A stretch of DNA of 64,000 bases from contig OZ241849.1 in the NCBI GenBank assembly GCA_965203165.1, forward strand, positions 1,680,563 through 1,744,562, given 5' to 3'. Below, one piece after another: positions 3-62,545 of this stretch. Under the pieces are notes generated by a model, which saw only the letters and a list, made by a program, of their open reading frames with translations, searched no databases and had not been told where the DNA came from. The position numbers and the translations under genes are program-made. The stretch's first letter is position 1, and every line of letters starts with the position of its first letter. The DNA comes from Dehalococcoidia bacterium (GTDB lineage Bacteria; Chloroflexota; Dehalococcoidia; Bin125).

Positions 3-860
3 TGGCGTTACGAAGTCGTTGACCGCGAAGGTCACAACGAGCTTGGGCTGGAGGCGCAGCCCGGCACGCACGAGTTTTCCGTCGCAGCTGTGAGGCACCC
101 ACTGGAGTTGGAGACGCCTGCGGCGTTGAATTGGAGCGACGCGCTCGCATATACCGCGACAAAGCCCGCCCCGAACGTGACGCTCACCGCGACGCACGAC
201 ACGGTAACCGTATCGTGGGACCGTCAACCGCTCGCCCGGCATCCGGGCTGGAACGTAGAGCTGCTTGACGTCGAAGGAGGCGGCATGCGGAGCGACATCA
301 TGAGCCACCGGATGATCTCCGATCAAGGCAGCTCATCGGCTCGCCACACGGTGACTTTCACGCACCTGCCGCCCGATACCGCGTTCAACGTGCACGTCTA
401 CCTAAACCTCGCCGAGCACGAGCCCATCCCGTCGTGGATGGCGTCGCTCTCATCTGAACATCCGCGCACGGTTCGCACCAAACCGGCACCACCAGATTGG
501 ACCCCGTGGCCCGTCGGCGCGCAAAACCTACAAACCACTGCGACTGACGACAGCATCACCATCTCGTGGGACGCACCGTCAGATAGCGCTGCTGATCGCT
601 GGTTCGTCGAGCTGTACGACTCTACATCCGGACGTCTGCTATATGCGCGCTGGGCATACCTCAGCGAAAGCCCACTGACAATCAACCGCCTGCTTCCGAC
701 AACGACGTACCGCATCACCGTGGAGCACATCGATCTGCGAACGACTGCAACGACAGCGACCGTTACTACATCCGCTGCGGCTGCGACCGGCGCCGGCACG
801 CCCGGCTTCAGTAGTGCGTGCTACTGCCCCGATCCGACGAAACTGTTTCACGGGCAGTGA
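3..860 (+). CDS. 5'-truncated secreted repeat protein with FN3-like modules (motif TATHDTVTVSWD); paralog of the genes at 51653..53107 and 53318..55885
   Basis: The reading frame is open from the window start with no upstream stop. The TATHDTVTV(S/T)WD module is shared with the two large minus-strand paralogs. GC3-rich codon usage. Confidence 0.6.
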   Translation, partial: WRYEVVDREGHNELGLEAQPGTHEFSVAAVRHPLELETPAALNWSDALAYTATKPAPNVTLTATHDTVTVSWDRQPLARHPGWNVELLDVEGGGMRSDIMSHRMISDQGSSSARHTVTFTHLPPDTAFNVHVYLNLAEHEPIPSWMASLSSEHPRTVRTKPAPPDWTPWPVGAQNLQTTATDDSITISWDAPSDSAADRWFVELYDSTSGRLLYARWAYLSESPLTINRLLPTTTYRITVEHIDLRTTATTATVTTSAAAATGAGTPGFSSACYCPDPTKLFHGQ

Positions 861-3208: not shown

Positions 3209-4602
3209 GCAGCGGGCGGGCGGGCGCGCCGTCGCCATGGGCCGCGCTGTTCGCGGCGCTGCTCTGGATCGCGGCGGGGTTGATCGCCGCCCAGGGCGGC
3301 TGGGGCGTCCCCGTGGGCATCGCGCTCGGCGCGGCGGGACTGCTGCTCCTGCTCGCGGCGATCGTCTCGGTACACCGCGCTCGGCGGCGGCTGGCTGAAG
3401 CGATCCGCACCGCCGGCGCGGGCGACGCGCCGCTCAACCCGCCCGCCGACGCCGACCTGGCGCAGGCCGTGCGCGCCGTCTCCGACGGCGTGCGCAGCGC
3501 CCGCGAGCTGCTCGGGCAGAGCCAGGCCGAGCGCGCCCAATTCGAGCATGCGCTCTCCGCCGCGGGCGACGCGGTGCTGGCGCTCGACGCCGGCGGGCGC
3601 ATCGCCTACCTCAATCCCGCCGCGCGGGAGTCGCTGGCTCCGGCCGAGGGCGTCTCTCCGCTCCGCATCGGCGCACCCCTAATCGACGCGGTGGGCGACC
3701 CCGACCTCTACGCCGCCGTCGAGACGGCGCGCGCCCAAGGCGGCTCGCAGTCGCTCGCGATCCAGCACAGCGGACGCCGCTACCGCGCCGTCGTCGCGCC
3801 GCTCGGCGAGGACGGGGTCTGGAGCGTCGTCGTCGCGCTGCACGACATGACCGAGCAGCAGGAGGCGGAGACCGCGCGGCGCGACTTCTTCATCAACGCC
3901 TCGCACGAGTTGCGCACCCCGCTGGCGACGATCTCCGCGGCCGCCGAGACGCTTGAGCGGGCGCGCGACGCCGCCGACGCGGGGCGCTTCCGCGAGATCA
4001 TCCAGATCGAAGCCGAGCGGATGAGCCAGCTGGTCGAAGAAATGCTGGCCCTGGCGCGGCTCGAGTCGGGGCTGGCGCAGCCCGATCTGCGTAACGTCGC
4101 CGCCGCCCCGCTGATCGAGCGCGCCGTCGAGCGGATGCGCCCGCAGGCCGAGCGCAACGGCCTCAGCCTGAGCGCCCGGCTCGACCCCGCGGCCGAGGAC
4201 GCGATCGAGGCCGACCCCGACCTGATCCTGCGCGCGCTGCTCAACCTGCTGCAGAACGCGATCAAGTTCACGCCCCAAGAGGGAACCATCGAGGTCTTCA
4301 CCGCAGCCGACGATCTGTCGCAGCCCGCACAGCTTTGGATCCACGTGCGCGACAGCGGCATCGGCGTCGAACCCGCGGAGCAGAGCCGCATCTTCCAGCG
4401 CTTCTACCGCATCGATCGCGCCCGCGCGATGGGCAGCGGCACCGGCCTGGGCCTGGCCGTCGTGCGCCACATCGCCGAGGTGCACGGCGGCGCGGTCTCG
4501 CTGGAGAGCGAGCCGGGCCGCGGCTCCACGTTCGGCTTCTCCGTGCCCAGATCCGCGGACGTATCCGACGCGACAGAAGCGAACTCGCTAACTACTCCTT
4601 AA
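3205..4602 (+). CDS. PhoR-like sensor histidine kinase (TM, PAS, HisKA, HATPase_c)
   Basis: The start ATG overlaps the regulator TGA (ATGA). HisKA H-box FFINASHELRTPL; G-box GTGLGLAVV. The N-terminal 250 aa of the 716-aa track ORF is an overlap artefact. Confidence 0.85.
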   Translation: MSSGRAGAPSPWAALFAALLWIAAGLIAAQGGWGVPVGIALGAAGLLLLLAAIVSVHRARRRLAEAIRTAGAGDAPLNPPADADLAQAVRAVSDGVRSARELLGQSQAERAQFEHALSAAGDAVLALDAGGRIAYLNPAARESLAPAEGVSPLRIGAPLIDAVGDPDLYAAVETARAQGGSQSLAIQHSGRRYRAVVAPLGEDGVWSVVVALHDMTEQQEAETARRDFFINASHELRTPLATISAAAETLERARDAADAGRFREIIQIEAERMSQLVEEMLALARLESGLAQPDLRNVAAAPLIERAVERMRPQAERNGLSLSARLDPAAEDAIEADPDLILRALLNLLQNAIKFTPQEGTIEVFTAADDLSQPAQLWIHVRDSGIGVEPAEQSRIFQRFYRIDRARAMGSGTGLGLAVVRHIAEVHGGAVSLESEPGRGSTFGFSVPRSADVSDATEANSLTTP

Positions 4603-4606
4603 CGCC

Positions 4607-4627
4607 TTGCCAACCTGCCATTAACCG
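4607..4627 (+). promoter_or_regulatory. Candidate PHO-box-like direct repeats (TTGCCAACC / CATTAACCG, about 11-bp phase) upstream of pstS
   Basis: Direct repeats of a (T/C)(A/C)ACC core about 65-85 nt upstream of the pstS start. A similar TTACCG/TTAACCG pair lies upstream of pstC at about 26127-26143. Confidence 0.3.
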
Positions 4628-4693
4628 CCGCCCGCCCGCTCGCGCCATACGCTGTCCCTGCCGTCAGGCGGCACAGGTCCGCGCAACGGGGCA

Positions 4694-5836
4694 ATGGGCC
4701 ATCGAGAGAGGACGAACGCTTTGACACGCTTCAACAAGCCGGGAATTCGCTGGCTGCTGCCGATGCTGCTGCTGATCGGCCTCGCGGCCGTAGCCATCGG
4801 CTGCGGCGGCGGTGACGACGCACAACAGACCGCCGTTCAGGCGACCGAGGCCGAACAGCAGCAGCCCGCCGCCGATACGGCGCAGCAGCAGGGCTCCGAC
4901 TCCTCGTCCGTCGCCGCTGACCTGTCGGGCGAGATCGCGGTCGACGGCTCCAGCACTGTCTTCCCCATCACCGAAGCGATGGCCGCCGAGTTCGGCATCG
5001 CCAACCCTGATGTCCGCGTCACCGTCGGCGTCTCCGGCACCGGCGGCGGCTTCAAGCGCTTCTGCGCGGGCGAGACGGATATCTCCGACGCCTCCCGCCC
5101 GATCCGGAGCGCCGAAGTCGAACTCTGCGATGAGAACGGGATCAGCTTCATCGAAGTGCCCGTCGCCTACGACGGTCTCACCGTCGTGGTCCACCCCGAC
5201 AACGACTGGGTCGACCAGCTCACCGTCGCCGAGCTGAACACGATCTTCCGTCCCGACGACTACGCGGTGACCTGGGCCGATGTGCGCGACGGCTTCCCCG
5301 ATGTCGAAATCTCGCTCTTCGCTCCGGGCGCCGACTCCGGCACGTTCGACTACTTCACCGAGACAATCAACGACGACGGCGGCGTCCACCGCTCCGACAA
5401 CACCACCTTCTCCGAGGACGACAACGTGCTCGTGCAGGGCGTCTCCGGCGAGCGTGGCGGAATCGGCTACTTCGGCTTCTCCTACTACGCCAACAACTCG
5501 GACCGGCTCAAGGCCGTGCCGATCATCAACGACGCCGGCGCGGCCGTCGTCCCCAGCCTCGAGACGATCAACGACGGCTCCTACAACCCGCTCTCGCGCC
5601 CGCTGTTCATCTACGTCAGCGTCGCTTCGCTGGACCGCTCGGAGGTCGCCGCCTTCGTCGAGTACTACGTCACCGACGGCGTCTTCCTGGTCGACTCGCC
5701 CGAGGTCGGCTACGTGCAGCTGCCCGAGGAGCTCTACGCCGCCGCGCTGACCCGCGCGCAGGAGCGCATCACCGGCTCCGCCATCGCGCTCGCCCAGGAG
5801 GGCCAGACCCTGGCCTCAATCTACGGCGCGGAGTAG
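4694..5836 (+). CDS. pstS: Phosphate ABC transporter substrate-binding lipoprotein PstS
   Basis: Signal peptide with lipobox (AIGC) and PstS-family motifs ([20 protein letters not shown]). Confidence 0.9.
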
Positions 5837-6059: not shown

Positions 6060-6520
6060 ACTCCGTCACACCCGCGCCCACAGCTCCGTCATACCCGCGC
6101 TTGCCGCGGGTATCTCGCCGTGCCGAGCACCAAGCCCCGTTCCCGCCACCGCCACCGTCATACCCGCGCCCACAGCTCTGTCATACCCGCGCTTGCCGCG
6201 GGTACCCCGCCGCGCCGAGCACCAAGCCCCGTTCCCGCCACCGCCACCGTCATACCCGCGCCCAAAGCTCCGTCATACCCGCGCTTGCCGCGGGTATCTC
6301 GCCGCGCCGAGCACCAAGCCCCGTTCCCGCCACCGCCACCGTCATACCCGCGCCCAAAGCTCCGTCATACCCGCGCTTGCCGCGGGTATCTCGCCGCGCC
6401 GAGCACCAAGCCCCGTTCCCGCCACCGCCACCGTCATACCCGCGCCCAAAGCTCCGTCATACCCGCGCTTGCCGCGGGTACCCCGCCGTGCCGAGCACCA
6501 AGCCCCGTTCCCGTCACAGC
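6060..6520. repeat. 92-bp tandem repeat, about 5 units, each carrying a REP1 hairpin (tacccgcg-cttgc-cgcgggta). Flanked by 43-bp direct repeats (agcaccccaaacccacccccgccacttaccaagacctaccaaa) at about 5950-5995 and 6515-6560
   Basis: Period of 92 bp between successive gtcatacccgcgcttgccgcgggta occurrences (6089, 6181, 6273, 6365, 6457). Confidence 0.85.
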
Positions 6521-20619: not shown

Positions 20620-20643
20620 TCATTCCTGCGTAGGCAGGAACCA
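20620..20643. repeat. REP2 element (gtcattcctgcgtaggcaggaacc)
   Basis: Member of a dispersed family. Other copies at 44828-44880, 45079-45125, 49314-49606 (x4) and 61589-61618. Confidence 0.8.
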
Positions 20644-44827: not shown

Positions 44828-45125
44828 AATCCGTCGTTCCTGCCTGCGCGTGGGTTCCTGCCTGCGCAGGAATGACGGAAGGGGGCGCGATGTGGATGAG
44901 CGGGGCGCGGCGCGATTGGTGGGCTGGTTCGCGGTGCGATTGGTGGGCTGGCGCGCGGCGCGATTGGCGGGCTGGCACGCGGTGCGATTGGTGGGCTGGT
45001 TCGCGGCGTTCCACCCCCCACCTAACCTCCCCCCTGGAAGGGGGGAGGGATGAATTGGGGAAGGGGCGAGTATTGGGGTGGGTTCCTGCCTGCGCGTGGG
45101 TTCCTGCCTGCGCAGGAATGACGGA
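44828..45125. repeat. Composite repeat: REP2 doublet direct repeats (44828-44880 and 45079-45125) flanking a 24-bp x4 tandem (gcgattggtgggctggttcgcggt, about 44911-45005) and the GGGGAGGGATGAATTGGGG palindrome motif
   Basis: Seen directly in the sequence. Confidence 0.8.
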
Positions 45126-45157: not shown

Positions 45158-46420
45158 CTAGCCGATCCGGCGGAAGATGAGGCAGGCGTTTTGGCCGCCG
45201 AAGCCGAATGAGTTTTTGAGTGTGACCCGCACATCGGCCTCGCGGGCGGTGTTGGGCACGTAGTCGAGGTCGCAGTCGGGGTCGGCGTGCGCGTAGTTGA
45301 TCGTGGGGTGGATGCGGCCGTCGAGCATGCCTTTGATCGCGGCGATTGATTCGAGTCCGCCCGCGCCGCCGAAGGCGTGGCCGATCATCGACTTGGTTGA
45401 GGAGATGGCGACGCCGGCGGCGGCTTCGCCCAGCGCCTGCTTGATCGCGCGGGTTTCCGAAGCGTCGTTGAGCGGCGTCGAGGTGCCGTGCGCGTTGATG
45501 TGGTCGATCTCCTCCGGCTCGACGCCGGCGTCGTCCATCGCCCAGCGGATGGCGCGGACGGGGCCGGCTCCGTCGGCGTCGGGCATGACGAGGTGGTGGG
45601 CGTCGGCGCTGGAGCCGAAGCCGGCGATCTCGATCTGGAACTCGGCACCGCGGGCGCGGGCGGATTCCTCGCTCTCGAGGATCAACACGCCTGCGCCTTC
45701 GGCGGGGACGAAGCCGTCGCGCTGCGCGTCAAAGGGGCGGCTGGCCTCTTGGGGGTGTTCGTTGTTGGCGGTGAGCGCGCGCATCACGGCGAAGCCGCCC
45801 AGACCGAGCTGGCAGAAGCCGGCCTCGCATCCGCCGGTGATCACGATGTCGGCCTGGCCGCGGCGGATCACGTCGGCGGCTTCGCCGATCGCCTGGGTGC
45901 CGGCGGCGCAGGCGGTGACGACGGTGGTGTTGTAGCCGAGCAGGCCGAACTGCATCGCAATGTTGGCGGCGGCCATGTTGGGCAGCACGCGGGGGATGAA
46001 GAGCGGGTCGAGGCGCATGCCGCCGCGGTCGATCAGCTTGCGGGCGCCGTCCTCCAGCTCGGGGTAGCCGCCGCTGCCGTTGCCCAGCACGACGCCGATT
46101 CGCGCGCGGTCGAGCGCGTCGAGATCCAGCCCGGCGTCGTCCACCGCCTCGCGGGCGGCGGCCACGGCGAGTTGGGAGAAGCGCGCCATGCGCCGGGCCG
46201 ACTTGCGGTCCATGAAGTCCTGCGGATGAAAGTCGCGGATTTCGCCGCCGATGGTGCAGGAGAAGCCCTCGACGTCGAAGAGCGCGATCGGCTCGATGCC
46301 GCTCTCGCCGGCCAGGGCGCGCCGCCAGAATGTCTCGACGCCGTTACCCAGCGGCGAAAGCGCGCCCATGCCGGTGACGACGACGCGGGTGCGATCGGGG
46401 CGCGTGCGATCGTCCCCCAT
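45158..46420 (-). CDS. fabF: 3-oxoacyl-ACP synthase II
   Basis: KAS-II active-site regions (VTACAAG, HGTSTPLND, GHAFGGAGG). Start chosen at MGDDRT. Confidence 0.9.
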   Translation of the reverse strand: MGDDRTRPDRTRVVVTGMGALSPLGNGVETFWRRALAGESGIEPIALFDVEGFSCTIGGEIRDFHPQDFMDRKSARRMARFSQLAVAAAREAVDDAGLDLDALDRARIGVVLGNGSGGYPELEDGARKLIDRGGMRLDPLFIPRVLPNMAAANIAMQFGLLGYNTTVVTACAAGTQAIGEAADVIRRGQADIVITGGCEAGFCQLGLGGFAVMRALTANNEHPQEASRPFDAQRDGFVPAEGAGVLILESEESARARGAEFQIEIAGFGSSADAHHLVMPDADGAGPVRAIRWAMDDAGVEPEEIDHINAHGTSTPLNDASETRAIKQALGEAAAGVAISSTKSMIGHAFGGAGGLESIAAIKGMLDGRIHPTINYAHADPDCDLDYVPNTAREADVRVTLKNSFGFGGQNACLIFRRIG

Positions 46421-46422
46421 GG

Positions 46423-47892
46423 CTAGCGCTCGCGCTCGGCGGCCGGCGAGGCGTCCGGCTCGTCGGTCGCCAGGGCGTCGGCGTTGCGGAGGCAAGCGCG
46501 GGCGTTGGCGGCGAGCGAGAGCGAGCCGAGCACGGCGACCAGGTCCTCATCGCCGCCGGCCAGCTCGCGGGCGGCGGCGAGGGCCGACTCGACCGAGGGC
46601 GCGATCGCGACGGAGCCGTTCCAGTCGGCGAAGGCGGCGGTGAGGTCGGCGGCGGGGCGTGAGCGGGGGTGGTCGGAGGCGGTCAGGACGACCGCGGCGG
46701 CGCGCTCGCTGATTGCGGCGGCGATCGCGTCGAGCGCCTTGTCGCCGAGCACGCCGAGCACGACGATCAGCCGCTCGTGGGGAAAGTATTCACGCAGCGC
46801 ATCGAGCGCGCGCTGCACGGACTCGCCGTTGTGCGCGCCGTCGACGACGAGCCGCGGGGTGGCGCGCCCGCCGCGCAGCGCCTCGGGCCATTGCAGCTCT
46901 TCGAGCCGCCCGGGCCACTGCACGGTCGCCAGCCCGCTGTGGACGGCGGACTGGGGGATTTCGAGTCCCTGGGCGCGGAGCAGGTCCAGCGCGGCGACGG
47001 CGGTTGCGGCGTTCTCGATCTGGAAGTCGCCCAGCAGCGGGATCAGCAGCAGTTGCTCTTCCGGCTCGCCGGGGCGCGGCTCGCGCCGCCGCAGTCGGAA
47101 CCACTGCCCCCACGGCTCGACGCCGGCGGGCGTCCATTCGTAGGCGGCGGCGACTTCGACCAACGGCGTGGGCAGATCGTCGGCGGCGTTGCGAATTACC
47201 GCGGCGGCGGCTTCGGAGCGCTGCGGCCCCAGCACCGCGACATGCGTGCCGGCGGTCATGATGCCGGCTTTTTCGGCGGCGATCTGCTCGATGCGGTTGC
47301 CCAGGATGTCGGTGTGCTCGTAGGACAGCGCGGTGATCACCGCGGCGTCTTTCTCGCCGAAGACATTGGTGCAGTCGAGCCGCCCGCCGAGGCCGACTTC
47401 GACGACCTGGATGTCGACCTCATCGTCCCAGAAGGCGTGGAAGGCGAGCGCGGTGAGCAGCTCGAAGGTGCTGATGTGGCCCGGCTGGGCGGCGAGCTCG
47501 GCCTCGACGTGGACGCGCAGCTCGTTCGTCAGCGCGGTGAAGTATTCCTCGGGCAGCGGCTGGCCGTCGATGCGGATCCGCTCGCTGAAGGAGTGGAGGT
47601 GCGGGCTGGTGAAGAGGCCGGTGTGGAGGCCGGCGGCGCGCAGGCAGGACTCGATCATCGCGGCGGTGGAGCCTTTGCCCTTGGAGCCGGCGATGTGGAC
47701 GGTGCGGCGGCCGAGTTGGGGGGAGTCCATGCGGCGCAGCAGGGAGCCGATGCGGTCGAGCGCGAACATCGGTCGCGAGCGGCGCGGGAGCGAGCCGCGC
47801 TCGAAGTCGGCGAAGCTCATCAGCCAGTCGGTCGCGGCCTTGTAGGAGGTGATCGCGGTTGGCTCGGTGGGCGCGGGCCGGGTCTCGCTCAT
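46423..47892 (-). CDS. folC: Bifunctional folylpolyglutamate synthase / dihydrofolate synthase
   Basis: Mur-ligase family P-loop (IAGSKGKGST) and FolC domains. Start chosen at MSETRPAP. The track's 612-aa version runs through a repeated leader segment. Confidence 0.8.
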   Translation of the reverse strand: MSETRPAPTEPTAITSYKAATDWLMSFADFERGSLPRRSRPMFALDRIGSLLRRMDSPQLGRRTVHIAGSKGKGSTAAMIESCLRAAGLHTGLFTSPHLHSFSERIRIDGQPLPEEYFTALTNELRVHVEAELAAQPGHISTFELLTALAFHAFWDDEVDIQVVEVGLGGRLDCTNVFGEKDAAVITALSYEHTDILGNRIEQIAAEKAGIMTAGTHVAVLGPQRSEAAAAVIRNAADDLPTPLVEVAAAYEWTPAGVEPWGQWFRLRRREPRPGEPEEQLLLIPLLGDFQIENAATAVAALDLLRAQGLEIPQSAVHSGLATVQWPGRLEELQWPEALRGGRATPRLVVDGAHNGESVQRALDALREYFPHERLIVVLGVLGDKALDAIAAAISERAAAVVLTASDHPRSRPAADLTAAFADWNGSVAIAPSVESALAAARELAGGDEDLVAVLGSLSLAANARACLRNADALATDEPDASPAAERER

Positions 47893-47916
47893 TGCGCTTC
47901 GCTTCCTCTGCCTGCG

Positions 47917-48080
47917 CGTCGTCGACTCATCGTACGCGCTGAGTCGGCCCTGCGCAGCCGCGCCGCCACTGAGCACCTCCTCGCTCCACTCGCGGGCTGG
48001 CGCGATGTCCCTCGTGCGAGCATCGGCGCGGCGCGTTTTCCAGCCCCCGATCGGCGAAAACCTGGGCGGATTTGGCGCAC
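47917..48080. repeat. Copy 1 of a roughly 130-bp duplicated leader element (copy 2 at about 49163-49290); here immediately 5' of folC
   Basis: gcgtcgactcatcgtacgcgctgagtcggccctgcgcagccgcg...catcggcgcgg...cccgatcggcgaaaac(c)tgggcgga(t/c)ttgcgcac is shared. Copy 1 carries a 45-nt insertion. Confidence 0.7.
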
Positions 48081-48412
48081 GGAAGCGTGCGCGATGTGCG
48101 CCGGCATCTGAGTTTGGCGACGGGCGGGGCAAGCTCGCTGAGGCACACGTGACGGTGACGAGGGGCAACGCTCGATCGTCGGCTGCGCCGGCGTGGGGCG
48201 CGCTCTCGGCGCGGGAACGTAGAGCGCTAGGCTGCTCGCGGGCGGAACGCTCGGCGCTCAATGGAGTGGCGTGGGTGCTGCTTGGTACGCTGGCGCGGGC
48301 GGCTTATGCGCATAGGGGTGGTGCCGATCGCGACGATTGAAGCGTCAGGGCATCCGCGGAGACCTGCGGATCGCAGAGTGTGCGGCGGCAGCAGCTTGCT
48401 TCCCGCAGAAGC

Positions 48413-49018
48413 TCAGTACGCGCACCCGGCCTCTTTCAACGCGACGCGGGTGGTGGGGCGCAGGTCTTCTACGGCGGCTTCAAATTCGAGAATGGGAGAA
48501 CGGGTGTCTGGTGCTCTGCCGGGATCGTAGTCCCCTTCTAGGAACGTCGCCATCGTCACCATTATGTCCGCCCGGGCGAGGTGAAACTGCATGAGCTCGC
48601 TGGGGACTCTGCGAAGGACCTGGAGGTGCTGGAAATATGTATCGGTGTAGTCGTAGGCGGTTTCGGTGGCGGCGACGCGACCAAACATGTAACACCAAGC
48701 GGCGTACTCGTCGATCGTCATCTCGCGGGTGGGCTGAGGCGCTGGGGTGGTACGCGACGACTGCTGTTGCGCCTGTTCCTGCGTCTGCTCTTGCTGCAGC
48801 GACAGCTGCTGTGCCTGTTCCTGCGCTTGCAGCTCCTGATGCGTCTGCTCCTGCTGCTCGGTGGCGCTCGATGTGCTGGCAGTTGCGGGCACTGGTGTCG
48901 AGTCGTCCTCGTCTCCCCCAGCGATGGCGGCGATGATCACGACGACGATGAAGAATCCGGCGGCGGCAAGCGCGACGCGACGCAAGGTGGTGCGGTTCAT
49001 CTGCTCTCTCCAGCTCAC
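48413..49018 (-). CDS. Hypothetical membrane-anchored protein with a Gln/Glu-rich linker
   Basis: N-terminal TM helix. The low-complexity QEQ region might be spurious, but codon bias is consistent. Confidence 0.45.
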   Translation of the reverse strand: MSWREQMNRTTLRRVALAAAGFFIVVVIIAAIAGGDEDDSTPVPATASTSSATEQQEQTHQELQAQEQAQQLSLQQEQTQEQAQQQSSRTTPAPQPTREMTIDEYAAWCYMFGRVAATETAYDYTDTYFQHLQVLRRVPSELMQFHLARADIMVTMATFLEGDYDPGRAPDTRSPILEFEAAVEDLRPTTRVALKEAGCAY

Positions 49019-49313
49019 TCGGCGGGGTAGATTTGTGACTGGGGGATGTTACGGCGCTGCGTTGATGTTCCTCTGCCGGCGGCCGATGGTCGTTTGTCGT
49101 AGGGCGTAGGCCGCGACGCAACGGGCCGATCGGCCCGTTCAGCGTCGGCTTCCTGCTCGTTCTGCATGGCGTCGACTCATCGTACGCGCTGAGTCGGCCC
49201 TGCGCAGCCGCGCGGCCACCGAGCATCGGCGCGGTGCGTCTCCCATCTCCCGATCGGCGAAAACTGGGCGGACTTGCGCACCAAGCCCCGTCCACGCCTC
49301 CCCCACGCCCCCT

Positions 49314-49628
49314 TCCGTCATTCCTGCGTAGGCAGGAACCCAGGTGATCTCCAGCGCCCGTATGCGCCACGATGCCGCGACGGTCCACCTGAGCCGCTCT
49401 GCGCTGCCGCTGGACATTCAACGCCACGCTGAGCCGCTCCTACTGCGTGGGTTCCTGCCTACGCAGGAATGACGGAAGGGGCGCAGGGGCGCAGGGCGGG
49501 GTTGGGCGCCGGGTGCGGCGAGATGCTCGCGGCGAGCGCGGGTTCCTGCCTGCGCAGGAATGACGAAAGTGGCAGCGGGTTCCTGCCTGCGCAGGAATGA
49601 CGGAAAGGGCGTAGGAGTGACGGAATGT
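49314..49628. repeat. Cluster of four REP2 hairpins (one joined to a REP1-like fragment at about 49517-49567)
   Basis: ttcctgc(g/c)...gcaggaatgacgga repeated at 49314, 49449, 49540 and 49578. Confidence 0.85.
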
Positions 49629-49680
49629 GGGGCGTGTGCCCATCGGCGCTGGCGGGTTACCCTGTGGGCGGGAGTTGGCG

Positions 49681-50643
49681 ATGGCTGGCACGCTGCGCGA
49701 GACGCTTGAGGGCAATCTGGCGGGACGCGACGACGTCGAGGGCCTGATCGAGGTGGTCGAAGCGATCGCCGAGGGGGCCTCGCGGGTGGACGCGCTGACG
49801 CGCCGGGCGGCGCTCGCGGATCTGCTCGGCGAGACCGGCGAAACCAACGTGCAGGGCGAGATCGTGCAGCGGCTCGACGCGGCCGGCACCGACACGTTCG
49901 TCGAGGTGCTGAGCGAGTGCGGGCGGGTCGCCGCGCTGGCTTGCGAAGAGCTGGAGCAGGCCGTCTTCGTCAGCGACGACGCGGACCACCCCTACCTGGC
50001 GCTGTTTGACCCGGTGGACGGCTCAAGCAACATTGATGTGGCGGTGACGATCGGCTCGATCTTCGCGATTTACCGCCGTGCCGACGATGCGCCGGTCACG
50101 GAGCGCTCGCTGCTCCGCCCGGGGCGCGAGCAGATTGCGGCGGTCTACGTGGTCTACGGCTCGAGCACCGTGCTGGTCGCCGCGACGGCGGGGCGGGTGG
50201 ACGGTTTCACGCTGGATCCGGACAGCGGGGCGTTTCTGCACAGCCACCCGAACATTGCCATTCCGCAGAAGTGCGCCGCGTACAGCGTGAACGAGGGCAA
50301 CGCGGGCAACTGGGAGCCGCCGATGCAGGTGGCGGTGGCCGAGCTGCGCGAGGCCTACGGGCTGCGCTACGTCGGCTCGCTGGTGGCGGATTTTCACCGC
50401 GATCTGCTGAAGGGCGGAATCTTCCTCTACCCCGGCGACCGCAAGAGTCCCGCGGGCAAGCTGCGGCTGGGCTACGAGGCCAACCCGCTCTGCTACGTGG
50501 CCGAGCAGGCGGGCGGCGCGGGCAGCGACGGCGCGAGCCGCATTCTCGACCTCCAGCCCGAACAACTGCACCAGCGCACGCCGCTGATCGTCGGCAACGC
50601 CGACGTCGTCCAATCCGTCGTCCAACGCCTCAGCGCCGGCTGA
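49681..50643 (+). CDS. fbp: Fructose-1,6-bisphosphatase class I
   Basis: FBPase motifs (DPVDGSSNID, GDRKSPAGKLRLGYEANP). Start chosen at MAGTLRE. Confidence 0.85.
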   Translation: MAGTLRETLEGNLAGRDDVEGLIEVVEAIAEGASRVDALTRRAALADLLGETGETNVQGEIVQRLDAAGTDTFVEVLSECGRVAALACEELEQAVFVSDDADHPYLALFDPVDGSSNIDVAVTIGSIFAIYRRADDAPVTERSLLRPGREQIAAVYVVYGSSTVLVAATAGRVDGFTLDPDSGAFLHSHPNIAIPQKCAAYSVNEGNAGNWEPPMQVAVAELREAYGLRYVGSLVADFHRDLLKGGIFLYPGDRKSPAGKLRLGYEANPLCYVAEQAGGAGSDGASRILDLQPEQLHQRTPLIVGNADVVQSVVQRLSAG

Positions 50644-50679
50644 CACACCGCCGCGCGACACCTCCAAGGGAGCCCAAAC

Positions 50680-51708
50680 ATGACCACCGCCGACCTTCAC
50701 GACACCGCGCGGGCGCTCGTCGCGCCCGGCAAGGGCATCCTTGCCGCCGATGAATCGGCGCCCACGATCAAGCGGCGCTTCGACGGAATCGGGGTCGATT
50801 CGACCGAGACCAACCGCCGCGACTGGCGGCAGTTGCTGTTCACCGCCGACGGCATCGGCGACTACATCTCCGGCGTGATTCTGTTCGACGAGACGCTGCG
50901 GCAGCAGGCGTCGGACGGGCGGACGCTGGTCGAGGTGCTCAGTTCGGCGGGCGTGATTCCGGGCATCAAGATCGACAGCGGCGCGAAGGATCTGGCGGGC
51001 GCGCCCGGCGAGAAGGTGACGGAGGGCCTGGACGGCCTGCGCGAGCGGCTCGATGAGTACCGCGGGCTGGGCGCGCGGTTCACCAAGTGGCGCGCGGTGA
51101 TCGCGATCGACGAGGGGCTGCCGAGCGACTACTGCCTCGAGGTCAACGCGCACGCGCTGGCGCGGATGGCGGCGCTCTCGCAGGAGGCGGGGCTGGTGCC
51201 GATCATCGAGCCGGAGGTGCTGATGGACGGGGCGCACGACATCGCGGCCTGCGCCGACGCGACGGAGCGCGCGCTGCGCGCCACGTTCGCGGCCTGCGCG
51301 GCGCAGCGCGTGGACCTGCCGGGCGCGCTGCTCAAGCCCAACATGGTGCTTTCGGGCAAGGACGCCGCCGAGCGCGCGCCGGCCGAGACGGTCGCGGCAG
51401 AGACGCTGCGCGTCTTCCGCAACGCGGTGCCGGCCGCGGTGCCGGGCTGCGTCTTCCTTTCGGGCGGCCAGAGCGACGCGGAGGCGACGGTGAATCTCGA
51501 CGCGATCAACCGGCTCGCGGCGTCGGAGGGCGCGCCGTGGGAGTTGAGTTTCTCCTACGGGCGCGGCCTGCAGGCGACGCCGCTGGGCGTCTGGAGCGGG
51601 CAGCGGGAGAATGTCGCCGCCGCCCAGGCCGCATTCCAGCTCCGCGCCAGGCTCACCGCCGCCGCCCGCCGCGGGGAGTACAGCCCGTCGCTGGAGCAAG
51701 AGGGGTAG
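50680..51708 (+). CDS. fba: Fructose-bisphosphate aldolase class I
   Basis: Class I FBA motifs (GKGILAADES, IKIDSGAKDL, Schiff-base lysine region). Confidence 0.85.
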   Translation: MTTADLHDTARALVAPGKGILAADESAPTIKRRFDGIGVDSTETNRRDWRQLLFTADGIGDYISGVILFDETLRQQASDGRTLVEVLSSAGVIPGIKIDSGAKDLAGAPGEKVTEGLDGLRERLDEYRGLGARFTKWRAVIAIDEGLPSDYCLEVNAHALARMAALSQEAGLVPIIEPEVLMDGAHDIAACADATERALRATFAACAAQRVDLPGALLKPNMVLSGKDAAERAPAETVAAETLRVFRNAVPAAVPGCVFLSGGQSDAEATVNLDAINRLAASEGAPWELSFSYGRGLQATPLGVWSGQRENVAAAQAAFQLRARLTAAARRGEYSPSLEQEG

Positions 51709-59212: not shown

Positions 59213-59727
59213 CAGTCGTCTTCGCGCTCGCGTTTGCGGCGTAGTTCTTCTTCCGCGCGGCACCTCGCCCCGCCCCAGATGTCCGGCGGCGCTTGGATGC
59301 CGCCTTCGCGGGGGTGGGGAGCGCGGGAGACGGGGACGGGGTTTGGTGCTCAGCGCGGCGAGATACCCGCGGCAAGCGCGGGTATGACGGAGTGGGGGGT
59401 GCGGGGGTATGACGGAGTGGCGAGCGCGGAGGTGTCGGAGTGGGGAGCGCGGGAGACGGGGACGGGGTTTGGTGCTCAGCGCGGCGAGATACCCGCGGCA
59501 AGCGCGGGTATGACGGAGTGGGGGTGCGGGGGTATGACGGAGTGGCGAGCGCGGAGGTGTCGGAGTGGGGAGCGCGGGCATGACGGAGTGGGAGCGCGGG
59601 GGTGTCGGAGTGGGGAGCGCGGGTATGACGGAGTGGGGGTGCGGGGGGTGTCGGGAGAGGGAAGCGTGAACAGGCTTTAGTCGTCTTCGCGCTCGCGTTC
59701 GCGGCGCAGCTCTTCTTCCACGCGGCG
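59213..59727. repeat. REP1-rich insert (two roughly 120-bp higher-order units) bracketed by 48-bp direct repeats. The left repeat is a duplicated 3' end (last 14 codons plus stop) of the minus-strand gene 59677..60117
   Basis: Left tcagtcgtcttcgcgctcgcgtttgcggcgtagttcttcttccgcgcgg vs right ttagtcgtcttcgcgctcgcgttcgcggcgcagctcttcttccacgcgg. Confidence 0.8.
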
Positions 59728-61584: not shown

Positions 61585-62545
61585 CACTTCCGTCATTCCT
61601 GCCTGTGCGGGAATGACGGAAGTGCGGTGCAGGTGTGGCGGGGGCAGTCGCGGGGCTCCGTGCTGTGCGCGGCGAGATACCCGCGGCGAGCGCGGGTATG
61701 ACGGTCTTCTCTCGCGCGGGTGTGGCGGAGCTGTCTTGCGTGGGTACGACGGTCTTCTCTCGCGCGGGTGTGGCGGTCTTCTCTTGCGCGGGTGTGGCGG
61801 AGCTGTCTTGCGTGGGGTGGCGGTGGTGGGGCGCAGGTGTGGCGGGGGCAGTCGCGGGGCTCCGTGCTGTGCGCGGCGAGATACCCGCGGCGAGCGCGGG
61901 TATGACGATTTTCTCTCGCGCGGGTATGACGGTCTTCTCTCGCGCGGGTACGACGGTCTTCTCTCGCGCGGGTGTGGCGGAGCTGTCTTGCGTGGGGTGG
62001 CGGTGGTAGCGCGCAGGTGTGGCGGTGGCAGTCGCGGGGCTCCGTGCTGTGCGCGGCGAGATACCCGCGGCGAGCGCGGGTATGACGGTCTTCTCTCGCG
62101 CGGGTGTGACGATTTTCTCTCGCGCGGGTGTGGCGGTCTTCTCGCGCGCGGGTATGACGGTCTTCTCTCGCGCGGGTGTGGCGGAGCTGTCTTGCGTGGG
62201 GTGGTGGAGCTGTCTCGCGCGGGTGTGGCGGTGGCAGTCGCGGGGCTCTCCGTGCTGTGCGCGGCGAGATACCCGCGGCGAGCGCGGGTATGACGGTCTT
62301 CTCTCGCGCGGGTGTGACGGTCTTCTCTTGCGCGGGTGTGGCGGAGCTGTCTTGCGTGGGGTGGCGGTGGTGGGGCGCAGGTGTGGCGGAGCTGTCTTGC
62401 GTGGGTGTGGCGGAGCTGTCTTGCGTGGGTGTGGCAGAGCTGTCTTGCGTGGGTGTGGCAGAGCTGTCTCGCGCGGGTGTGGCGGTGGTGTTTTGCGCGG
62501 GTGTGGCGGTGGTGTTTTGCGTGGGGTGGCTGGCGCATGCGGGAT
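61585..62545. repeat. Higher-order tandem array of about 960 bp: one REP2 hairpin, then four roughly 200-bp units, each holding a REP1 hairpin (61674, 61877, 62057, 62266) followed by 24-bp tandem repeats (tcttctctcgcgcgggtgtggcgg / agctgtcttgcgtgggtgtggcgg)
   Basis: Seen directly in the sequence. Fills the divergent intergenic region between the SDR gene and the penicillin acylase gene. Confidence 0.85.

Follow-up and report, generated by a model that had tools for sequence, protein, structure and literature searches.

A repeated region upstream of folC, probably a duplicated promoter module, flanks a strain-variable orphan gene in a Dehalococcoidia bacterium

The window (the whole 64,000-nucleotide stretch of Dehalococcoidia DNA that was analysed) carries folC on its minus strand (46423–47892), which encodes a 489-aa dihydrofolate synthase/folylpolyglutamate synthase and lies downstream of the first of two repeated segments, copy A. 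An earlier note, made from the letters alone, had named this gene folC, and the identity is borne out by a TIGR01499 score of 338.6 bits (cutoff 162.65) and by Pfam Mur_ligase_M and Mur_ligase_C domains. The folC start codon is called identically in L002, L006 and other relatives (handles of this form denote related loci). Its conserved divergent neighbour is the fructose-1,6-bisphosphatase (FBPase) gene on the plus strand (49681–50643; Pfam FBPase and FBPase_C), the true start of which is likely ATG 49681, as this agrees with the 320-aa gene call of L002 and with a TACCCT hexamer 18 nt upstream. Lodged between the two repeat copies is a minus-strand orphan gene (48413–49000) for a 195-aa protein with one N-terminal hydrophobic transmembrane helix followed by a Q/E-rich linker. 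It is unrelated to folC and looks like a membrane protein, as the note had said, and it has no match to any Pfam or NCBIfam family. Five homologues were found among 5.8 billion proteins, all with at least 62% identity, and the gene is missing from L001 and from L007–L025. Exact database look-ups of the window FolC and of P0003 returned no record.

The intervals around the orphan gene differ in how fast they change. The spacer that separates the orphan gene from copy B (49001–49162, minus strand) is 99% shared with L002 and 54% identical to L026, with indels, and it contains a 20-bp perfect palindrome, AACGGGCCGATCGGCCCGTT, at 49120–49139. The spacer from the orphan gene's stop codon to copy A (48086–48412, minus strand) is fast-evolving and indel-rich, being 66% identical to L026 and partly unalignable with L002. 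The gap between FBPase and copy B is filled by a cluster of REP-like palindromes (49300–49620), each made of TTCCTGCCTGCGCAGGAA and a tail; the window holds seven TTCCTGCCTGCGCAGGAA sites (0.01 expected), and L001 has an orthologous cluster.

Upstream of each minus-strand gene lies one copy of the repeat, in the same orientation and ~1.25 kb apart. The earlier note had described this arrangement, and both repeat and profile searches recovered it. Copy A (47912–48085, minus strand) is the folC-proximal copy of the repeated upstream region and consists of block 2 (48085–48017), a 47-nt segment (48016–47970) and block 1 (47969–47912). Copy B (49163–49281, minus strand), upstream of the orphan membrane-protein gene, consists of block 2 (49281–49220) and block 1 (49219–49165), without the 47-nt segment. 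In a repeat search of the window, the block 1 pair aligned over 64 nt at 92% identity (47912–47975 and 49162–49225) and the block 2 pair over 45 nt at 89% (48017–48061 and 49220–49264), with block 2 ~87–89% identical between the copies overall. A 43-mer, GTCGACTCATCGTACGCGCTGAGTCGGCCCTGCGCAGCCGCGC, is exact at 47921–47963 and 49171–49213; as it was matched in 0 of 100 shuffles, the repeat is far beyond chance. A profile built from an alignment of the element (nhmmer) found copy A at 48079–47913 (E=2.8e-50) and copy B at 49280–49163 (E=3.6e-30), both on the minus strand. The copies are thus ~170 nt and ~118 nt long rather than the 130 bp first proposed, the 47-nt segment being present in A only. 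They were also said to sit 25–140 nt upstream of their genes. The upstream position stands and the distances do not: copy A ends ~20 nt before the folC ATG (47892), spanning 20–190 nt upstream, and copy B ends ~165 nt before the orphan-gene ATG (49000), spanning 165–281 nt upstream. The composite motif GTCGAC-TCAT-CGTACG is found in copies A and B alike, as had been noticed.

The repeat is restricted to the folC locus. The same profile detected no third copy in the 64-kb window (next-best match E=2.2) and no further copies in 193 kb of related loci, so the dispersal at positions unrelated to gene starts that had been named as a refuting outcome was not seen. A 20-nt core has a single match in a 596 Gb genome collection, again upstream of folC, on a related Dehalococcoidia chromosome of 3.42 Mb that is ~97% identical to the window. 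Three metagenome matches to this 20-mer were discarded, since they come from unrelated sequences of lower G+C content that resemble the window in the 20-mer alone. The 47-nt segment (47970–48016, minus strand; copy A only in the window) is flanked by the short direct repeats TGCTCG and TGCTCA. By alignment it is present in copy A of the window and in both copies of L026, and missing from copy B of the window and from L002. This distribution indicates that the segment is ancestral to the element and that copy B and the single L002 copy have lost it by deletion.

All relatives keep the gene order, with aldolase–FBPase diverging from folC–fabF. In most of them the FBPase–folC gap is ~140–200 nt (~440 nt in L013) and holds no membrane-protein gene. 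The locus is structurally polymorphic, with three arrangements among four haplotypes: two copies plus the orphan gene (the window and L026), one copy plus the orphan gene (L002), and one copy without it (L001). L026, known from a separate assembly, encodes an orphan protein with 71% identity to that of the window and has the same two-copy layout, with TACGAT and GGCTGCGCAG (described below) intact in both copies; an assembly artefact was rejected on account of this independent match. In L002 the orphan gene, at 99% DNA identity to the window, stands with no copy in front, so the gene does not depend on copy B. Homology between L002 and the window breaks exactly at CGACG, a 5-nt microhomology common to both junction sequences. 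Overall, a ~1.25-kb segment between direct repeats of ~120–170 bp is present or absent among near-identical strains. The paralogous copies within L026 are identical over the 47-nt segment (46/46), while each is 91–93% identical to the window. Paralogous copies match each other at least as well as they match their positional orthologues, which points to mosaic gene conversion between copies A and B, and such conversion by itself could explain why the copies within a genome are nearly identical, with no need to invoke selection on copy B.

Anchored and MAFFT alignments of the region upstream of folC identified G(C/G)CGTACGAT(G/A)A as the sole block conserved across relatives. It lies 30–99 nt before the folC start codon, at FolC identities from 84% down to 62%, and the sequence 3' of it is not conserved and varies in length. 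Within the block, the hexamer TACGAT and its flanks, G(C/G)CG-TACGAT-(G/A)A, are kept in the eight lineages examined, down to 62% FolC identity, and the upstream copy of L026 retains TACGAT likewise. In the window, the copy A hexamer (47929–47934, minus strand) ends 36 nt before the ATG and is the putative -10 box of folC; the copy B hexamer (49179–49184, minus strand), the candidate duplicated -10 box, lies 178 nt upstream of the orphan-gene ATG. In front of folC, L001 has only block 1, with REP sequence in place of block 2, so block 1 is the indispensable part. A conserved TACGAT block followed by unconserved sequence is the pattern of a promoter and not of a leader RNA.

At a fixed 15 nt upstream of TACGAT, in the -35 region, lies a second conserved element, GGCTGCGCAG (copy A, 47950–47959; copy B, 49200–49209; both minus strand), which contains the 8-bp palindrome CTGCGCAG (given for copy A). 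It is invariant in seven sequences (both window copies, both L026 copies, L007, L009 and L010), down to 78% FolC identity, and is missing in more distant relatives. From its position and palindromic make-up, the GGCTGCGCAG/CTGCGCAG block could be a -35-position element, possibly an operator. TACGAT, which agrees with TATAAT at 4/6 positions, fits the -10 hexamer pattern (TATAAT or TANNNT), and its spacing from the start codon suits a promoter. No TTGACA-like -35 hexamer was found at 16–18-nt spacing, the best candidates, TGCGCA and CTGCGC, matching TTGACA at ~3/6 positions. A consensus scan of 47800–49700 found no sigma-70 promoter and a companion scan no intrinsic terminator (a G+C-rich hairpin and a T tract), both under strict E. 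coli-type criteria, which carry little weight in a genome of 69% G+C. High-G+C bacteria, Mycobacterium and Streptomyces among them, typically show TANNNT -10 boxes together with a -35 consensus that is weak or lacking. A conserved TANNNT hexamer (TACCCT, TAGGCT or TAAGCT) likewise stands 18–21 nt before the FBPase ATG, which supports this promoter type in the clade. For this uncultured Dehalococcoidia lineage of high G+C content, TACGAT and its flanks provide the phylogenetic footprint of what is probably a TANNNT-type promoter. The block is ~12 nt, longer than a -10 hexamer strictly requires, so it may hold a protein-binding site, either in place of the promoter or overlapping it.

A peptide, AAAQGRLSAYDEST, had been proposed to be encoded in frame in both copies if extended reading frames were allowed. 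At copy A it does share the reading frame of the folC ATG, so that part of the claim stands. At copy B the frames differ (49211 mod 3 = 2, against 1 for the orphan-gene start at 49000), and the reading frame that holds the peptide (48480–49427) is an out-of-frame overlap of the 195-aa gene. A shared N-terminal peptide or coding extension was rejected, as the upstream region is in frame at folC only and is unconserved as protein; FolC conservation in relatives begins at the ATG, so the peptide is not real.

The repeated segment is the region just upstream of folC; we consider it likely that it carries the folC promoter and that the locus contains a duplicated promoter module. This was among the options raised in the earlier note, and it is favoured because the TACGAT block alone is conserved and copy B is a local duplication, being seen only together with the lineage-specific gene inserted between FBPase and folC. 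That the segment works as a promoter, where transcription begins and that copy B is active are deduced from sequence comparison. The functional core would be block 1, with TACGAT as a TANNNT-type -10 box and GGCTGCGCAG 15 nt upstream at the -35 position. Transcription would start ~7 nt past TACGAT, near GTCGAC at the 3' edge of the repeat, and the folC leader would then be ~30 nt, including the ribosome-binding site. If TACGAT is the -10 box, the word leader, first used for the shared segment, is a misnomer, since nearly all of it lies upstream of the transcription start. In the presumed ancestral state, FBPase and folC were divergent, ~150 nt apart, and folC had a single promoter. The small orphan membrane-protein gene would then have lodged between them, leaving the folC upstream region on either side. 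Copy A would still serve folC, and copy B would probably drive the orphan gene via a ~170-nt leader. Recombination and gene conversion between the direct repeats would have given rise to the variants with two copies and the gene, one copy and the gene, and one copy alone. So read, the locus would be a clean natural case of promoter duplication alongside the insertion of an orphan gene beside an essential gene.

The main competitor to a duplicated promoter is that the rearrangement which brought the orphan gene next to folC left copy B behind as a side product without function, with only copy A working and copy B kept similar by gene conversion alone. Such a scar could have arisen from one homologous and one microhomology-mediated crossover, or from a Campbell-type single crossover. 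The L002 gene without an upstream copy, with its break exactly at the shared CGACG, fits this account, as do the mosaic of paralogue and orthologue identities indicative of gene conversion, the loss of the 47-nt segment from copy B, and the 178 nt, with a strong palindrome between, that separate TACGAT from the orphan gene's start codon. However, a functionless scar would be expected to decay or to vanish by recombination between the repeats, and L026 retains the two-copy layout although its spacers have diverged to 54–66% identity, with TACGAT and GGCTGCGCAG intact in both of its upstream copies and block 1 82–91% conserved. We regard this explanation as rather unlikely. It is less probable still, and in our view doubtful, that the segment is or includes an operator for a regulator that controls folC and the orphan gene together, through either the palindrome (G)CTGCGCAG(C) or GACTCA-N10-TGAGTC. 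The invariance of GGCTGCGCAG across the seven sequences, with its perfect 8–10-bp palindrome, and the ~12-nt extent of the TACGAT block, beyond the needs of a -10 hexamer, would suit an operator, but GACTCA-N10-TGAGTC is conserved in the closest strains only and CTGCGCAG is missing or shifted in relatives below 78% FolC identity. In addition, no regulator gene adjoins the locus, and the TACGAT 11-mer occurs elsewhere in the window at chance level (three one-mismatch matches against 1.1 expected).

Two other explanations are much weaker. A structured cis-regulatory leader RNA common to both mRNAs, for example a folate-related riboswitch, was suggested by the position upstream of a folate gene and by a possible 7-bp hairpin in block 1 (CGACUCA/UGAGUCG). 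Yet an Rfam cmscan of 46000–51000 on both strands at E<=1 returned only an unrelated sRNA inside folC (E=0.51) and no THF or ZTP family, in agreement with the failure to match the ZTP and THF riboswitches by eye. The two copies with their leaders fold no better than shuffled sequences (z-scores −0.39 to +0.86). The hairpin is broken in L007, L009, L010 and L026 with no compensatory changes, pairing being 71.4% against 68.0% in shuffles and the covariation score 0.068 against 0.078. Moreover, the parts upstream of block 1 are dispensable (missing in L001; the 47-nt segment missing in L002), and the sequence from TACGAT to the start codon is unconserved. We therefore hold a leader RNA to be very improbable; what the locus shows is a commonplace rearrangement between strains rather than a new regulatory RNA, and the candidate shared leader of a folate gene, as a local duplication, need not be pursued as a riboswitch. 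Slightly less credible again is a mobile or dispersed repeat (a MITE, a REP-type element or a pair of att sites) that lies near two gene starts by chance. It is true that genuine REP-like elements crowd the interval from FBPase to copy B, and that the orphan gene together with one copy behaves as a presence/absence unit between strains. Against this, the repeat search found no terminal inverted repeats and none joining the ends of either copy, the 64 kb hold just this pair of copies, the 596 Gb of genomes contain the core at a single place, in the related complete chromosome, the element is at the orthologous folC position in every relative, and no recombinase gene is nearby. Occurrence at many unrelated loci, with terminal inverted repeats or a palindromic core, as in MITE and REP-type elements, is not what was found here.

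The duplicated module was also compared with known systems. Putative mobile promoters have been surveyed as a form of promoter propagation (Matus-Garcia, Nijveen and van Passel, 2012; PMC3488235), using promoter fragments within ~150 nt of the start codon, and two-member families of ~92% mean identity were the commonest class in that survey. The best block here, which spans 64 nt at 92% and contains an exact core of 43 nt, resembles these. Measured against the survey's definition, the upstream regions share at least 50 nt at at least 80% identity (64 nt at 92%, plus 45 nt at 89%), the downstream coding sequences are non-homologous (FolC against the 195-aa protein, best BLASTP E 1.1), and so are the upstream neighbours (orphan gene against FBPase); by distance, copy A (20–190 nt) falls within its range and copy B (165–281 nt) outside (PMC3488235). 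Unlike mobile promoters (PMC3488235), the copies here are 1.25 kb apart and flank one inserted gene, with no distant propagation, and nothing suggests that the promoter itself is mobile.

The candidate promoter resembles the sigma-A TANNNT housekeeping promoters of Mycobacterium and Streptomyces, with its TACGAT hexamer, plausible distance to the start codon, ill-defined -35 region and short leader with a GGAG-type ribosome-binding site, and the FBPase hexamer is similar. It differs in that its host is a Chloroflexota/Dehalococcoidia MAG lineage, the conserved block is ~12 nt and function is deduced from conservation; a literature search for promoter mapping in Dehalococcoidia found nothing usable. 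All that the segment has in common with the THF-I, THF-II and ZTP riboswitches is its genomic context, upstream of a folate-metabolism gene; no covariance model matches it at E<=1, its structure is not conserved and it does not fold stably.

Indels flanked by direct repeats arise by homologous or by homology-facilitated illegitimate recombination, and the 1.25-kb segment, the ~120–170-bp repeats, the CGACG junction and the signs of gene conversion all resemble such events, with strain-level gain, loss and gene conversion apparently driven by the repeats. A more speculative thought, to which we give little credence, is that the promoter-carrying repeats form a built-in recombination cassette or, alternatively, that the conserved block GGCGTACGATGA, unusual in its length, is where an unknown regulator of the divergent FBPase–folC pair binds. 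If the cassette were real, the orphan gene could be lost and regained between strains by homologous recombination and folC would never be silenced, since each flank carries a copy of an essential gene's promoter; a cell-surface protein would then vary between on and off at the population level in this uncultured lineage of Dehalococcoidia. Unlike simple direct-repeat indels, the variants here bear the marks of further changes, by which L001 has also lost block 2 and L002 has lost the upstream copy.

Reading of 47600–49600 and a repeat search revealed two direct repeat blocks in a common order and orientation, with 47912–47975 matching 49162–49225 (block 1, the 3′ part of the repeat; 64 nt, 92% identity) and 48017–48061 matching 49220–49264 (block 2, the 5′ part; 45 nt, 89% identity). 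The same-orientation repeat described in the earlier note is real: both copies contain an identical 43-nt core, GTCGACTCATCGTACGCGCTGAGTCGGCCCTGCGCAGCCGCGC (47921–47963 and 49171–49213), which was present in 0/100 dinucleotide-preserving shuffles. Pairwise alignment placed an extra 47 nt (47970–48016) between the two blocks of the folC-proximal copy (copy A). Using a profile built from all copies, the limits on the minus strand were set at 48079–47913 for copy A and 49280–49163 for the other (copy B). The copies are about 170 and 118 nt long rather than 130 nt each, and the distance from the end of copy B to the ATG of the downstream gene is about 165 nt instead of 140 nt. Within the window, no third copy was found by profile search (next match E=2.2), and sensitive blastn of both intergenic regions gave no further copies.

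The gene identities given previously hold. FolC is encoded at 46423–47892 (minus strand); it carries the Mur ligase M and C domains and scores 338.6 bits for TIGR01499 (cutoff 162.65). An orphan gene on the same strand, at 48413–49000, specifies a protein of 195 aa that has a single hydrophobic helix at its N terminus and a linker rich in Q and E, and that matched no known family. The two proteins showed no relationship on comparison, and only 5 homologs of the orphan protein were found among 5.8 billion proteins, all within the narrow lineage of the window. An internal imperfect repeat (48758–48859) codes for the low-complexity linker, a region that differs in length among homologs (181–199 aa). 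The peptide AAAQGRLSAYDEST, said to be in frame in both genes if extended ORFs are allowed, is in frame only with the folC ATG; as the frame at copy B differs from that of the 195-aa gene, a shared in-frame peptide is biologically meaningless.

Related loci differ in copy number and gene content. The window is 69% G+C, and a 20-nt stretch of the repeat core had exactly one match among 185,579 species genomes, in L001, a 3.42-Mb chromosome labelled “MAG: Dehalococcoidia bacterium” that is ~96–97% identical to the window on either side of the region. L001 lacks the membrane-protein gene and carries a single block 1 immediately before folC, with REP-like sequence in place of block 2. L002, a 90-kb metagenome contig whose 195-aa protein is identical to the window’s, has the orphan gene without a repeat copy upstream: homology ends at ...CGACG|CCATGCAG, and the upstream position is occupied by a 75-aa ORF. 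Its folC is preceded by one contiguous block 2 plus block 1, without the 47 nt. A third locus, L026, reached through a 71%-identical homolog of the orphan protein, has the two-copy layout of the window (129–365 and 1374–1620, 81% identity), with the 47-nt segment in both copies. The two-copy arrangement is therefore no assembly artefact, is not limited to the window strain, and is older than the split between L026 and the window. In all of the more distant relatives examined, which were gathered via FolC homologs and their contigs, the order aldolase–FBPase (fructose-1,6-bisphosphatase) followed by divergent folC–fabF is kept, with an FBPase–folC gap of ~140–200 nt (~440 nt in L013) and no gene in it. 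Given these empty gaps and the narrow distribution of the orphan gene, that gene together with the second copy of the repeat is a lineage-specific insertion into the FBPase–folC gap. The folC upstream region has been duplicated locally, flanking a lineage-specific orphan gene, and the duplication is polymorphic among strains.

The core of the duplicated region is a motif deeply conserved upstream of folC. When folC upstream regions from eight lineages were aligned (FolC identity 84% down to 62%), the sole surviving block was G(C/G)CG-TACGAT-(G/A)A, located 30, 33, 36, 36, 56, 73, 84 and 99 nt from the start codon. Apart from a GGAG-type ribosome-binding site, the intervening stretch varies in length and content. 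Exactly 15 nt upstream of TACGAT lies a second block, GGCTGCGCAG, which shows no variation among the window copies, the two L026 copies, L007, L009 and L010 and is gone in more distant relatives. Both motifs fall within block 1. The rest of the repeat is dispensable in nature: L001 lacks block 2, and L002 lacks the 47-nt segment. The “composite palindrome” noted earlier consists of two adjoining 6-bp palindromes: CGTACG, which shares bases with the conserved block, and GTCGAC, which shows no conservation.

What marks a −10 promoter box is a conserved TANNNT hexamer at a suitable spacing from the start, with unconserved sequence after it. In the window and five relatives, FBPase likewise has a conserved hexamer (TACCCT, TAGGCT or TAAGCT), placed 18–21 nt ahead of its ATG. 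We consider the repeat core to be probably the folC promoter, with TACGAT as −10 box and GGCTGCGCAG as −35-region block. Transcription would then start near GTCGAC, where the repeat ends on its 3′ side, and the transcript would include almost none of the shared segment, which would count as a promoter region rather than a leader. No terminator-like site and no E. coli-type promoter site was found; the lack of the latter is a genuine weakness of this reading, given the poor −35 match. High-G+C bacteria generally use TANNNT promoters whose −35 regions are weak; our literature search returned no promoter mapping for Dehalococcoidia. That copy B drives the orphan gene is suggested more weakly than the role at folC.

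The earlier note had offered a cis-regulatory RNA, an operator or a duplicated promoter module, and the last agrees with the observed duplication together with the promoter function that we infer. A leader RNA is very improbable. The Rfam scan that had been proposed (46000–51000, E≤1) returned only a chance sRNA match within folC, and fold z-scores against shuffles for both copies and both leaders were −0.23, +0.86, +0.37 and −0.39. The only neat hairpin, CGACUCA/UGAGUCG, spans TACGAT, is 71% paired (68% in shuffles), has a covariation score below the shuffled mean, and is disrupted in L007, L009, L010 and L026 with no compensating changes. An operator overlapping the promoter is compatible with the promoter reading and is unlikely; the 11-mer GCGTACGATGA has no other exact match in the window and three one-mismatch matches (1.1 expected), a chance level that gives no sign of a regulon within the available sequence.

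Operationally, the folC-locus repeat fits the “putative mobile promoters” described by Matus-Garcia et al (PMC3488235), a class defined by ≥80% identity over at least 50 nt ahead of non-homologous genes, in which families of two members are the commonest case. Copy B is farther from its start codon than the limit set in that survey, and the copies are adjacent rather than spread to distant loci. A mobile or dispersed repeat is extremely doubtful here. Membership in a riboswitch, MITE or REP family was also rejected. The folC-region duplication is a further case of an event type already known.

Segment-by-segment identities between copies form a mosaic. In block 1, within-genome paralogs (window A/B 95%; L026 upstream/downstream 91%) are at least as similar as positional orthologs (91% and 82%). 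In block 2, window copy A is nearest to the upstream L026 copy (95%, against 85% for its positional ortholog). The 47-nt segment is identical between the L026 copies (46/46) and 91–93% identical to the window’s; copy B and the single L002 copy share a deletion of it bounded by TGCTCG/TGCTCA. Its presence in window copy A and in the two L026 copies makes it most readily understood as an ancestral component of the element, presumably lost in copy B and L002. The mosaic points to exchange between the direct repeats, 1.25 kb apart, by gene conversion and recombination. A CGACG microhomology coincides with the left junction of copy B (folC-proximal GTCGACG|ACGCG versus CCACGACG|CCATG in L002), which fits one illegitimate and one homologous crossover, although four haplotypes are too few to settle the sequence of events. 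Since conversion is able to keep copies alike, likeness alone is no evidence that copy B functions, and copy B may be a non-functional recombination scar, which we regard as rather unlikely. Neighboring spacers fall to 54–66% identity between the window and L026 while the two-copy layout and both motifs persist, which indirectly, and more weakly, suggests a functional copy B.

Several further features lie nearby. The dominant hairpin in the leader of the orphan gene comes from a perfect 20-bp palindrome, AACGGGCCGATCGGCCCGTT (49120–49139), lying between that gene and copy B; the palindrome occurs in L002, is missing from L026, and has no T-run after it. In L002, ~500 nt of unrelated sequence replaces the REP cluster and copy B, and the 75-aa ORF (4520–4747) has the orientation of the orphan gene and no Pfam match. 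The FBPase start at GTG 49627 (longest ORF) is probably wrong: ATG 49681 agrees with the 320-aa gene call in L002 and has GGGAG before it and the conserved TACCCT 18 nt upstream. TAGGCT, TAAGCT or TACCCT lies 21 nt upstream of FBPase in L007, L009, L010 and L013. The motifs GGATCGTCGCAGC and GATCAAG, conserved in the FBPase–folC gap of L010, L013, L014 and L015–L025 and unrecognizable in the window, could be FBPase promoter or regulator sites. The REP-like palindromic element (core TTCCTGCCTGCGCAGGAA, TGACGGAAGGGG-type tail) occurs at 7 sites across the window (0.01 expected), in both orientations, at 49300–49620 and at 20623–20640, 44855–44872 and 45101–45118. These gather in intergenic gaps and have orthologous clusters in L001, where the element has taken the place of block 2 upstream of folC. 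The flank of copy B adjoining the REP cluster (GGGGCGTGGGGGAGGCG-type sequence) matches, by blastn, arrays at 6093–6431 (period ~92 nt) and pieces at 59316–59509 and 61596–62289, which are probably further members of a REP-associated repeat family.
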